From Escherichia coli (GTDB taxonomy: Bacteria > Pseudomonadota > Gammaproteobacteria > Enterobacterales > Enterobacteriaceae): DNA of 64,000 nt. The stretch lies in the NCBI RefSeq assembly GCF_024223415.1, contig NZ_CP100500.1, one strand, 5' to 3'. The first letter of the stretch is position 1; each line of letters opens with the position of its first letter. Below are positions 8,257 to 57,288 of this stretch, piece by piece. The notes under the pieces were generated by a model. It did no database searches. It was given only the letters and a program-made list of their open reading frames with translations, and had not been told where the DNA came from. Both the position numbers and the translations under genes were made by a program.

Positions 8257-8463
8257 TTAAGCAGCCGTTCCGCGTGCTTCCTGTTCGCGTTCTTTCTGCC
8301 AGGCCAACACATCATCCTCATACCATCCGCGACGGCGTAAACCAACGCGAAAACCCTGCGGAAATTCTCCGGCGTTGATCATGCTTTGCAGCGTGCTGTC
8401 TGCCTTGATGTGGATAATTTTTTTTACTTCCTGGCGAAAGATAATTTTTCTGATTGCTTCCAT
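8257..8463 (-). CDS. AlpA-family HTH regulator/excisionase-like (68 aa)
   Basis: Pattern R..V......T.....N....P......R..GW.E..V..W matches my recollection of CP4-57 AlpA; located next to the integrase. Confidence 0.6.
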   Translation of the reverse strand: MEAIRKIIFRQEVKKIIHIKADSTLQSMINAGEFPQGFRVGLRRRGWYEDDVLAWQKEREQEARGTAA

Positions 8464-8594
8464 CGTGATTTACCTTGTGAATCCGGTGTATTCCGGTGAC
8501 AAATACGGTAAATCATCGGATATGGGTAAAAACAGTTCCCACCGTTTTTAAACGGTATACACCGTTTTTTATATTGATGATTTGAAATGGAATT

Positions 8595-8630: not shown

Positions 8631-8882
8631 TTACCGCCATTTTTTGGGCCTGCCTCCGATCTTCATAGATGCCGGACGTACGACCTTATCAATACTTACC
8701 GCCAGATTTCTGGAAGCGCCACGGGATACCAGAAAATCTACTACCTGTTTTTTTGATGGGGCCGTCGTCCTGTCCTCCGGATCGTAGGTTGACCAAAATT
8801 CATGCTGAACCATCAGGGCCAGTTGCAGCCCGTCGCAATTGCATCTGATATTTTTTTGCATCTTAACGGTTTCATGTTTCAC
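8631..8882 (-). CDS. Hypothetical protein (83 aa)
   Basis: ORF between int and alpA; basic C-terminus (GGRPKKWR); no family recognised. Confidence 0.3.
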   Translation of the reverse strand: MKHETVKMQKNIRCNCDGLQLALMVQHEFWSTYDPEDRTTAPSKKQVVDFLVSRGASRNLAVSIDKVVRPASMKIGGRPKKWR

Positions 8883-8959: not shown

Positions 8960-10201
8960 CTACACGGCTCGGATACCCCTTTTACCACTGGCGAGGGTTA
9001 CGCCCGTCGCCGCAGCCTCGACAAATTCGCCCCACCAGCGCATCAGCACGATGCGTTTTTCTATGTAGTTGCTCCGGTTGTATGCCCGTCTAACTTCGTT
9101 GGTGTCGACGTGGGCAAGTGCCGCCTCTATTACGTCCGGCTCGAATCCTTCCTCGTTCGCTGCTGTGCTGAATATGGCGCGTAATCCATGAGACACCAGC
9201 ACGCCAGCGAATCCCATACGCCGCAATGCTGCGTTAGCTGTCTGGCTGTTCATCGGCTGCTGTGGGTCTTTCAGACTTGGGAAAACGTAATTGCGGTGGT
9301 GGCTGATTGGTTTCATGGCCTCCAGCACCGCCATAGCCTGACCGGAAAGCGGGATAACGTGATCCCTGCGCATCTTCATGCGTCCGGCAGGTATCGTCCA
9401 TTGCTTCGCGTCCAGGTTGATTTCATCCCACCGCGTTGATGACGCTTCGGCGGGACGGGTTACGGTCAGTAACTGCCATTCAATCAGTAATCTGGTCTGC
9501 CGTTCTGTTGCCGATACTGATAAAGCCTGCATAAGCTCGGGCAGCTGTTCGGGGCGGATTGTTGGCATATGTTTTTTTACAGGTGAGGGAAACGCCTTAC
9601 GCACATTCATAGCCGGATTGGCATCAATCAGCCCACTGTTGGCGGCGTAATCCATTACCTCATTAACGCGCTGTAAAACCCGCTTGAGTGTTTCCAGGTT
9701 GCCGCGCTCCTTGATGGGGGTAAGCACTTCAACGAACCTTCGGGCGGTGAGGGTATCTATTGGCGTGTTGCCGATGAACGGGAATACATATTTATCCAGC
9801 GAACGCCAGATGTCTTTAATCGTGTTGGGGGCCAGATTCTGGCTGATTTTCACCTGGTACCATGCCGCCGCCACATTTTCGAACGTGTTCCCTTGTCTTC
9901 GGGCCTCTGTCTCTCTTTTTTGCCTCTCGTGGTCCTGCGGGTCAGTTCCGGCACTGATTAACGTCCTGTACTCGCTACGGCGTTTTCTGGCATCAGCCAG
10001 GGAAACATCTTCAAGCGATCCAAAACTCAGCAATATTCTTTTTTTGTCCGATGGTCGGTAGTAGGAAAATCTCCAGAGTTTTGATCCAGACGGTTTGACC
10101 AGGAGAAAAAGCCCTCCGCCGTCCTGCAGGGTGTACTCCTTTTGCGCTGGTCTGGCTGCTTTGATCTGCACTGTGGTTAATGGGTGTGTTTTTCTCGCCA
10201 T
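8960..10201 (-). CDS. int: Tyrosine recombinase/integrase, P4-type with N-terminal arm-binding domain (about 413 aa)
   Basis: N-terminus (YxLxDGGGLxLxVxPSGSKxWRFxYR) typical of P4-family integrases; catalytic C-terminal domain; about 220 bp from the tRNA-Pro 3' end. Start trimmed to the second Met. Confidence 0.85.
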   Translation of the reverse strand: MARKTHPLTTVQIKAARPAQKEYTLQDGGGLFLLVKPSGSKLWRFSYYRPSDKKRILLSFGSLEDVSLADARKRRSEYRTLISAGTDPQDHERQKRETEARRQGNTFENVAAAWYQVKISQNLAPNTIKDIWRSLDKYVFPFIGNTPIDTLTARRFVEVLTPIKERGNLETLKRVLQRVNEVMDYAANSGLIDANPAMNVRKAFPSPVKKHMPTIRPEQLPELMQALSVSATERQTRLLIEWQLLTVTRPAEASSTRWDEINLDAKQWTIPAGRMKMRRDHVIPLSGQAMAVLEAMKPISHHRNYVFPSLKDPQQPMNSQTANAALRRMGFAGVLVSHGLRAIFSTAANEEGFEPDVIEAALAHVDTNEVRRAYNRSNYIEKRIVLMRWWGEFVEAAATGVTLASGKRGIRAV

Positions 10202-10234
10202 ATGTCTATGATTCCACACGAAAAAACAGGGTTT

Positions 10235-10286
10235 TAGTTATACGGCTTTAGTTATACGTCAGCCCGTATAACTAAACGTATAACTA
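10235..10286. repeat. Symmetric repeat array between int and tRNA-Pro
   Basis: TAGTTATACG at 10235 and 10249, inverted CGTATAACTA at 10265 and 10277, giving a 52-bp dyad. Confidence 0.4.
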
Positions 10287-10419
10287 AAAAATCCGGCTGA
10301 TAGCTTATAAATCCGGTGATGTTCGGTGACTAAAAAACATAAAAAAACCCGCCAATCAAGTGATTAGCGGGTTATCCCTGTCTTATCCGGTGCTTTCCGG
10401 TGATATCCGGTGGGCGATT

Positions 10420-10496
10420 TGGTCGGCACGAGAGGATTTGAACCTCCGACCCCCGACACCCCATGACGGTGCGCTACCAGGCTGCGCTACGTGCCG
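10420..10496 (-). tRNA. proL: tRNA-Pro (anticodon GGG)
   Basis: Reverse complement reads CGGCACGTAGCGCAGCCTGGTAGCGCACCGTCATGGGGTGTCGGGGGTCGGAGGTTCAAATCCTCTCGTGCCGACCA, which matches E. coli proL from memory. Confidence 0.9.
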
Positions 10497-56289: not shown

Positions 56290-57288
56290 ATGAATAAGAA
56301 GGTGTTAACCCTGTCTGCTGTGATGGCCAGCATGTTATTCGGTGCCGCTGCACACGCTGCTGATACTCGCATTGGTGTAACAATCTATAAGTACGACGAT
56401 AACTTTATGTCTGTAGTGCGCAAGGCTATTGAGCAAGATGCGAAAGCCGCGCCAGATGTTCAGCTGCTGATGAATGATTCTCAGAATGACCAGTCCAAGC
56501 AGAACGATCAGATCGACGTATTGCTGGCGAAAGGGGTGAAGGCACTGGCAATCAACCTGGTTGACCCGGCAGCTGCGGGTACGGTGATTGAGAAAGCGCG
56601 TGGGCAAAACGTGCCGGTGGTTTTCTTCAACAAAGAACCGTCTCGTAAGGCGCTGGATAGCTACGACAAAGCCTACTACGTTGGCACTGATTCCAAAGAG
56701 TCCGGCATTATTCAGGGCGATTTGATTGCTAAACACTGGGCGGCGAATCAGGGTTGGGATCTGAACAAAGACGGTCAGATTCAATTCGTATTGCTGAAAG
56801 GTGAACCGGGCCATCCGGATGCAGAAGCACGTACCACTTACGTGATTAAAGAGCTGAACGACAAAGGCATTAAAACTGAACAGTTACAGTTAGATACCGC
56901 TATGTGGGATACCGCTCAGGCGAAAGATAAGATGGACGCCTGGCTGTCTGGCCCGAACGCCAACAAAATCGAAGTGGTTATCGCCAACAACGATGCGATG
57001 GCAATGGGCGCGGTAGAAGCACTGAAAGCACACAACAAGTCCAGCATTCCGGTGTTTGGCGTCGATGCGCTGCCAGAAGCGCTGGCGCTGGTGAAATCCG
57101 GTGCACTGGCGGGCACCGTACTGAACGATGCTAACAACCAGGCGAAAGCGACCTTTGATCTGGCGAAAAACCTGGCCGATGGCAAAGGTGCGGCTGATGG
57201 CACCAACTGGAAAATCGACAACAAAGTGGTCCGCGTACCTTATGTTGGCGTAGATAAAGACAACCTGGCTGAATTCAGCAAGAAATAA
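56290..57288 (+). CDS. mglB: Galactose/glucose periplasmic binding protein MglB (332 aa)
   Basis: Translated ORF recognised as E. coli MglB; signal peptide. Confidence 0.9.

Follow-up and report, generated by a model that had tools for sequence, protein, structure and literature searches.

Phased TCCGGTG repeats in the attachment arm and alpA leader of a PICI-like satellite of Escherichia coli are candidate sites for an AlpA-family excisionase and regulator

Introduction

Sites for excisionases (RDFs) are one-sided, and those of λ Xis are restricted to the P arm. P4 Vis is said, in work from Calì 2004 and Polo 1996, to bind two boxes in the interval from int to the core and, in addition, its own promoter, PLL, which it is said to repress; the box positions used here follow phased repeats that we read in the P4 sequence. 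In KplE1 (CPS-53), Panis et al. in 2010 reportedly found that the TorI and IntS sites at the int-proximal junction overlap the int promoter, so that the recombination proteins control int transcription. Both the proteins and the motifs of KplE1 differ from those described below.

Vis is required for excision and bends att DNA, according to the statement in PMC7498355 that cites Calì 2004. Repression of Pint by both P4 Int and Vis is noted in the passage of PMC7286903 that cites Piazzolla 2006. In phage 186, Apl recognizes direct repeats with a spacing of one helical turn, both at att and at pR-pL; features common to Apl, Cox, Xis and Vis have been listed (PMC7498355). In Gram-negative bacteria, the life cycle of PICI satellites has been described as being switched on by AlpA (PMC6092414). 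The AlpA protein of the PICI EcCICFT073 autoactivates and is required for transfer, and its overexpression led to int-dependent excision and replication with no effect on int expression (PMC6092414). In the AlpA and PICI literature that we searched, no description of AlpA binding sites or DNA targets was found for PICIs.

The element and its insertion site

The 64-kb stretch of DNA analysed here (the window) comes from an E. coli chromosome in which proL adjoins yejM/lapC. A mobile element of approximately 11.2 kb, with all of its genes on the negative strand, lies to the left of proL. It encodes a tyrosine integrase, a 76-amino-acid open reading frame (ORF), a 68-amino-acid AlpA-like protein and an Icd-like or primase-type gene, together with genes for a RepA helicase, SSB, PerC, ProQ, a major capsid protein and a head decoration protein. 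Inserted at proL, it is an E. coli phage satellite of the PICI-like kind. The original prediction had described the context correctly: tRNA-Pro(GGG) (proL) occupies positions 10420-10496, the integrase gene 8960-10201 and the alpA-like gene 8257-8463, all on the negative strand.

The order of int, a small winged helix-turn-helix (wHTH) gene and a primase gene is comparable in P4 and in the element. However, the element is PICI-like, with its capsid, decoration, RepA helicase, PerC and ProQ genes, and not of the P4 type, and its attB lies at proL, whereas that of P4 lies at leuX. EcCICFT073 and CP4-57 resemble the element in encoding a small AlpA-family protein next to a P4-like integrase. EcCIMP1 was considered as the identity of the element and rejected, since it is a different element inserted at tRNA-Thr.

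About 800 bp beyond the window, the element reaches its far end, which was read from an identical copy in strain GF4 (locus L001), where the window coordinate equals the L001 coordinate minus 3801. The att core, GGTCGGCACGAGAG, was placed at 10421-10434, overlapping the last 14 nt of proL, on the basis of the empty K-12 site, the distal junctions and an attP-like tandem junction (L025). The full 14-bp core was found at the int-proximal junction and at the attP-like tandem junction, whereas at the distal junction GGTCGGCACGAGAG is shortened to GGCACGAGAG or GGTCCACGAGAG (L001 2988-2997; L011 and L012).

The int-to-alpA stretch was present at a coverage of at least 80% in 370 of 5,426 complete E. 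coli genomes, and the alpA region in the records of Nissle 1917 was 100% identical. Two copies of the int-alpA module were found away from proL, in L007 (NZ_AP027256) and L009 (NZ_CP122588). One of them adjoins lpf fimbrial genes and the other rclB, and the junctions keep GATTTGGTCGGCACGAGA(G). These copies are either secondary-site insertions or rearrangements. Within the element, three to four copies of the repeat TTTT(G/A)CTCCCCACTTTTT, spaced by about 84 bp, were observed at approximately 4335-4548 of the window (L001 8136-8349), directly downstream of the RepA-family helicase gene. The repeats are iteron-like, and this region is probably the replication origin of the satellite.

Phased TCCGGTG repeats

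Exact copies of TCCGGTG start on the positive strand at 10312, 10386, 10396 and 10406 in the attachment arm and at 8482 and 8492 near alpA. Each of them is preceded by A or T, giving WTCCGGTG at 10311-10318, 10385-10392, 10395-10402, 10405-10412, 8481-8488 and 8491-8498. The repeats at the int-tRNA junction reported in the original prediction are therefore real, but the exact copies in the arm number four, and the "five or more" given there is reached only when the degenerate copies ATCCGGCT (10291-10298) and GTTCGGTG (10321-10328) are counted. The degenerate copies are on the same strand and in register with the exact ones, at distances of 20 and 10 bp. The two copies reported at 8481..8498 proved exact. 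They do lie upstream of alpA, but the term "alpA promoter region" is loose, as the copies are located 18 to 35 nt before the ATG, in the leader or at the transcription start.

The repeats form three groups, all on the positive strand. The core-proximal array (10385-10412) consists of three tandem 10-bp units, ATCCGGTGct, TTCCGGTGat and ATCCGGTG, and ends 8 bp short of the att core; the O111-type variant retains this triple as ATTCGGTG/TTCCGGTG/ATCCGGTG. The core-distal array (10291-10328) comprises the degenerate ATCCGGCT, ATCCGGTG and the degenerate GTTCGGTG at spacings of 20 and 10 bp, and sits between the replacement proL terminator and the integrase arm-type repeats. The alpA leader pair (8481-8498) reads ATCCGGTGt aTTCCGGTG, or CACCGGAatACACCGGAT on the coding strand. 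From int to the tRNA, the arm contains 12-bp repeats, the core-distal array, a terminator hairpin, the core-proximal triple, an 8-bp spacer and the core. In three variant types, the distal arm was found to contain the 12-bp repeats but no TCCGGTG array.

A terminator scan placed an intrinsic terminator, a hairpin followed by a T-run, at 10346-10373 on the negative strand, between the two TCCGGTG arrays. This element-supplied terminator replaces the native terminator of proL, which has the corresponding position in the empty K-12 site. Its stem is retained in variants with compensatory changes. The core-distal array lies in the sole stretch with room for a dedicated int promoter, which must be sited there.

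The window contains 14 copies of TCCGGTG versus approximately 7 expected; 4 same-strand copies fall within 130 bp, and 3 pairs are exactly 10 bp apart. Out of 2,000 first-order Markov simulations, none produced three or more copies within 130 bp, and 1 produced a single 10-bp pair. TCCGGTG was also the sole 7-mer in the window that recurred at +10 more than once. The arrangement is not due to chance. The remaining copies in the window look incidental; those at 57048 and 57097, for example, fall within a 332-amino-acid ORF.

A σ70 promoter scan of the negative strand revealed no convincing promoter for alpA or int. The alpA leader copies lie downstream of every promoter-like sequence visible, which places them in the leader or across the transcription start. 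Upstream of these copies, at 8530-8569, two 20-bp imperfect palindromes adjoin each other, AAACGGT-N4-ACCGTTT and AAACGGTGGGAACTGTTT. Both the O111 and the EC-107 types conserve these palindromes, which may be an operator for another regulator, for example, a helper-phage cue or a repressor.

The layout has close counterparts. P4 contains two 10-bp-phased YGGA runs, at 3970-4009 and 4040-4069, between its arm repeats and its core, and the second run, made of three YGGA units, stops 8 bp short of the annotated core, just as the core-proximal array of the element does. The motif is sharper in the element, where it is a 7- to 8-mer, than the loose YGGA of P4, and only the element has the proL terminator between its arrays. 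In CP4-57 of K-12, the order is a dyad, a phased TCGGA run, a hairpin and a phased run that stops some 8 bp short of the core, with the hairpin between the runs and two phased repeats just upstream of alpA, as in the element; the motif is CACCGGA in the element versus AACCAA in CP4-57. The repeat layout is also alike for 186 Apl and P2 Cox, whose operators are found at att as well as in a promoter region and which bind cooperatively, bend DNA and are flexible in sequence recognition (PMC7498355). However, Apl and Cox belong to another sequence family and operate in a lysis-lysogeny switch with face-to-face promoters, whereas the promoter-side target in the element is the regulator's own leader.

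Integrase arm-type sites

The integrase belongs to the P4/CP4-57 IntA clade. It contains the Pfam domains Arm-DNA-bind_3, Phage_int_M and Phage_integrase, matches PRK09692 in NCBIfam with 552 bits, and is 55% identical to K-12 IntA and 34% identical to P4 Int. Next to the int start, four 12-bp repeats, referred to as the dyad, span 10233-10288: two copies of TTTAGTTATACG (10233-10244 and 10247-10258) and two inverted copies, CGTATAACTAAA (10265-10276 and 10277-10288). The distal arm, outside the window, has two further copies of CGTATAAC(C/T)AAA (L001 3059-3082), located 61 to 85 bp from the core. This set matches the "attP arm sequence repeats" annotated in P4, where the int start has an inverted copy together with a tandem pair and a second tandem pair lies on the far side of the core.

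In the EC-107 type, all 12-bp copies in both arms have changed alike, from TATAaCT to TATAgCT. A more extensive change distinguishes L173 from L175 and L176 (IMG/VR), whose integrases are 97.2% identical after residue 100 but 68% identical over the first 100 residues. Between these loci, TAGTTATAC is replaced by GGGACTA in all four dyad repeats; the CCGG sites and the remainder of the arm are essentially unchanged, and the AlpA proteins are nearly identical. This is a natural swap of the arm-binding N-terminal domain of the integrase and a clear instance of modular evolution of arm specificity. In L067, which is inserted at tRNA-Met and encodes an integrase with 52% identity and a Vis-like 90-amino-acid regulator, TAGTTATACG repeats are kept, and no CCGG motif was found in the arm.

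The presence of the 12-bp repeats in both arms, their P4 layout, their joint change in the EC-107 type and their change together with the N-terminal domain identify them as the predicted arm-type sites of the integrase. TCCGGTG does not behave in this way. It is confined to one attP arm in the three variant types whose distal arms were inspected, and it does not covary with the integrase N-terminal domain between L173 and L175/L176.

The AlpA-like protein and ORF77

The proposed binder of the repeats is the 68-amino-acid wHTH protein encoded at 8257-8463. It matches PHROG 66/2790, "excisionase and transcriptional regulator," with an E value of 5.5e-7. Its scores were below the cutoff for the Pfam family PF05930, Phage_AlpA (17.6 bits; cutoff, 21), and for HTH_17 (16.5 bits; cutoff, 27), and it had no match in NCBIfam; some RefSeq records name the protein "AlpA family transcriptional regulator." A PDB chain, 8c3t, described as an "AlpA family phage regulatory protein," was matched weakly (E value, 0.48). 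In alignments, the protein is 31% identical to P4 Vis and 23% identical to K-12 AlpA, from which it differs as a separate allele. Its AlphaFold model (pLDDT, 84.6) has the β-α-α-β-β-α topology of a winged helix, and the closest solved folds are the MerR-type wHTH proteins RacA and BldC and the Xis of mycobacteriophage Pukovnik.

BldC binds direct repeats in cooperative head-to-tail multimers (PMC5859096). The likeness of this 68-residue MerR-like Streptomyces protein to the AlpA of the element is one of fold only, with about 19% identity, and BldC is a developmental regulator with no link to site-specific recombination. The antiterminator model of Pseudomonas aeruginosa AlpA was considered and rejected, as that protein has eight helices with an N-terminal ring, as opposed to the single wHTH domain of 68 amino acids found here (PMC9371919); its DNA-contact residues are 128-142 (PMC9371919).

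Between int and alpA lies ORF77 (76 amino acids; 8631-8861, negative strand), the C terminus of which reads GGRPKKWR. No family match for ORF77 was found in Pfam, PHROGs or NCBIfam. Among the variant types, only the three closest ones contain it, and no homologue of ORF77 was detected in 15 loci, representing nine AlpA helix groups, that keep the CCGG pair.

Comparison of related loci

We compared 117 related loci comprising 19 variants of the putative AlpA recognition helix; many of these loci share ancestry, and their counts do not represent independent events. A homologue search with the AlpA protein returned close E. coli and Shigella relatives only, and a profile search of genome contigs with the AlpA alignment yielded 4 loci, including L013 from E. 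albertii. A pair of CCGG sites spaced by 10±1 bp was found just upstream of alpA in 104 of the 117 loci (for example, CACCGGAattGACCGGA, CGCCGGAatcCTCCGGT, TGCCGGAataCGCCGGA and GACCGGAcaaCGCCGGT). The pair persisted at AlpA identities of 48% to 100% in leaders that could not otherwise be aligned, and one variant (L021/L061) has three tandem leader units.

Among the 117 loci, the CCGG pair was missing where the AlpA helix reads TLTKM or TLTEM (the 38I23, E. albertii and L168 types; TLTKMVNKG in the 38I23 type) and in L166, the helix of which reads FYEMIKRG. For the 38I23/E. albertii type, a k-mer comparison of arm and leader revealed no clear common motif. In L166, seven AAAACTTCCA repeats were observed at 3227-3413 (IMG/VR), upstream of the divergent alpA and in place of the CCGG pairs. 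Judging from its helix and leader, L166 may have a changed operator specificity. No clear CCGG pair was found in L163 or in L165/L057 despite an almost unaltered helix (FQEMINAGE), and these two variants, comprising three loci, are unexplained exceptions to the association between CCGG and AlpA.

CCGG sites occur in both the leader and the arm of L059, L060 and L173 to L176. In the arms of these loci, two sites lie between the core and the hairpin and one lies beside the arm repeats, and the site directly beside the arm-type repeats is kept as GCCGGA/TCCGG. The EC-107 type keeps the leader pair, while its core-proximal units have drifted to ACCGATG and TCCGATA, which indicates that arm sites are less constrained than leader sites. 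Looser arm sites resemble RDF operators in general (PMC7498355). Within this set of loci, the CCGG motif followed the AlpA subfamily, not the arm-binding domain of the integrase and not ORF77. As to conservation in related elements, which the original prediction had proposed for examination, the motif survives as the leader pair in 104 of the 117 loci and is lost with four altered helices and in the three loci with nearly unaltered ones.

A scan of IMG/VR for the triple repeat retrieved four copies of the element family and four unrelated contig groups. No AlpA homologue was detected in the four unrelated groups, and they were discarded as evidence: two of the three inspected have TCCGGTG 10-bp arrays inside replication-protein-like ORFs, in an iteron-like manner. 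In the third, the arrays are intergenic and follow a 156-amino-acid ORF. Replication-origin iterons were also rejected as a class for the repeats of the element, which lie at att and in the alpA leader.

Discussion

The comparative data make it likely that the TCCGGTG repeats are binding sites for AlpA, as predicted here. Features of RDF arrays are found at the locus. The direct repeats follow each other at roughly one helical turn (with a spacing of exactly 10 bp at 10386/10396/10406 and 8482/8492; 20 and 10 bp in the distal group), the sites are confined to one arm, between the core and the integrase arm-type sites, and a small basic winged-helix protein of 68 amino acids is encoded near int. 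As expected of a dual-function RDF and regulator, an identical 7- to 8-mer is present at att and in the alpA leader. We assign a probability of roughly two in three to the main reading, that AlpA acts through the TCCGGTG repeats both as an excisionase (RDF) and as a regulator of its own operon. The system is best read as an unusually clean example of a known design, that of P4 Vis, 186 Apl and P2 Cox.

In such a scheme, a helper phage would switch on alpA, and AlpA monomers would fill both arm arrays cooperatively. The AlpA-coated arrays would bend the attachment arm, so that integrase bound at the 12-bp repeats (10233-10288) could extend to the core (10421-10434) and become paired with the distal junction, and the element would excise. 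Given its place at the int promoter position, the core-distal array, when bound by AlpA, would also modulate int transcription, while the leader pair would mediate autoregulation of either sign. Since the AlpA of EcCICFT073 was without effect on int expression, the step of int regulation may not apply here.

The original prediction attributed both motif locations to one protein, either the arm-binding domain of the integrase or the AlpA-like protein. The latter candidate agrees with the comparative evidence, whereas the former does not. It is very unlikely that the repeats are arm-type sites for the N-terminal domain of the integrase, even though they lie in the attachment arm, the integrase has an Arm-DNA-bind_3 domain, and the three tandem units about 10 bp apart recall λ P'1-P'3. 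TCCGGTG is absent from the distal arm, while the CGTATAACTAAA repeats occupy both arms with a P4-like spacing. The N-terminal domain swap (68% versus 97% identity) altered the 12-bp repeats and left the CCGG sites unaffected, L067 has arm repeats without the CCGG motif, and integrase sites in the alpA leader would be unaccounted for. Binding by a different protein, ORF77 or a host factor, is improbable. ORF77 does hold the classical position of xis, is conserved in the three variant types with the clearest TCCGGTG and is missing from the motif-less 38I23 type. However, the CCGG pair occurs without a detectable ORF77 homologue in the 15 loci of nine helix groups, arm sites are kept without one in at least L059, L060 and L173 to L176, and the protein matched no family in Pfam, PHROGs or NCBIfam. 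Even harder to credit is an origin of the repeats as functionless products of replication slippage or tandem duplication. Copy numbers do vary, with two or three units in the alpA leader and three or two by the core, but the 7-mers are kept while the 3-nt spacers differ, the same motif occurs at two loci 1.9 kb apart, and the CCGG pair survives in unalignable leaders down to 48% AlpA identity.

AlpA might instead bind the repeats purely as a transcription factor, at the int promoter and its own operon, with directionality set by the integrase level or another protein. We consider this unlikely, but it has points in its favor: the core-distal array lies at the sole possible place for an int promoter, flanked by the proL terminator and int; K-12 AlpA carries the annotation of a DNA-binding transcriptional activator and was reported to activate intA; and PICI AlpA has been credited with activating the island cycle (PMC6092414). 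On the other hand, the core-proximal triple, upstream of the terminator and 8 bp from the core, is poorly positioned for promoter control but P4-like, and the AlpA of EcCICFT073 left int expression unchanged yet triggered int-dependent excision (PMC6092414). With AlpA as both excisionase and regulator, recombination and transcription would be coordinated by one protein, as we infer from the shared motif. Helper-phage induction, excision and int control would then run through one small protein, as in P4.

This analysis offers a candidate AlpA operator, made of two or three CRCCGGW units with a 10-bp spacing, and a map of the attachment site that sets the predicted integrase arm sites apart from the regulator sites. 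Current concepts are unchanged by it; the design was already known from P4, and the case is ordinary but well resolved.

A broader role can be imagined, in which CRCCGGW pairs are the operator of AlpA as the PICI master regulator and define a small regulon made of the leader, the int-proximal arm and a third, helically phased cluster at 166-277. AlpA on the core-proximal array, which lies between the 3' end of proL and the element-supplied terminator, might then serve as a roadblock or a switch for the tRNA-Pro(GGG) transcription unit. This extension is rather improbable; if true, the roadblock would tie satellite induction to host tRNA expression or to read-through into int. Of the 18 TCCGGT hexamers in the element, 16 lie on the positive strand, and 10 of the 18 are intergenic. 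In the putative third target, TCCGGTT occurs on the positive strand at 166, 186 and 216, at distances of 20 and 30 bp, together with an inverted AACCGGA at 271-277. This cluster occupies the distal intergenic region, downstream of the capsid genes, and two of its copies lie within a longer repeat, TTTTTGCACAnnTCCGGTT.
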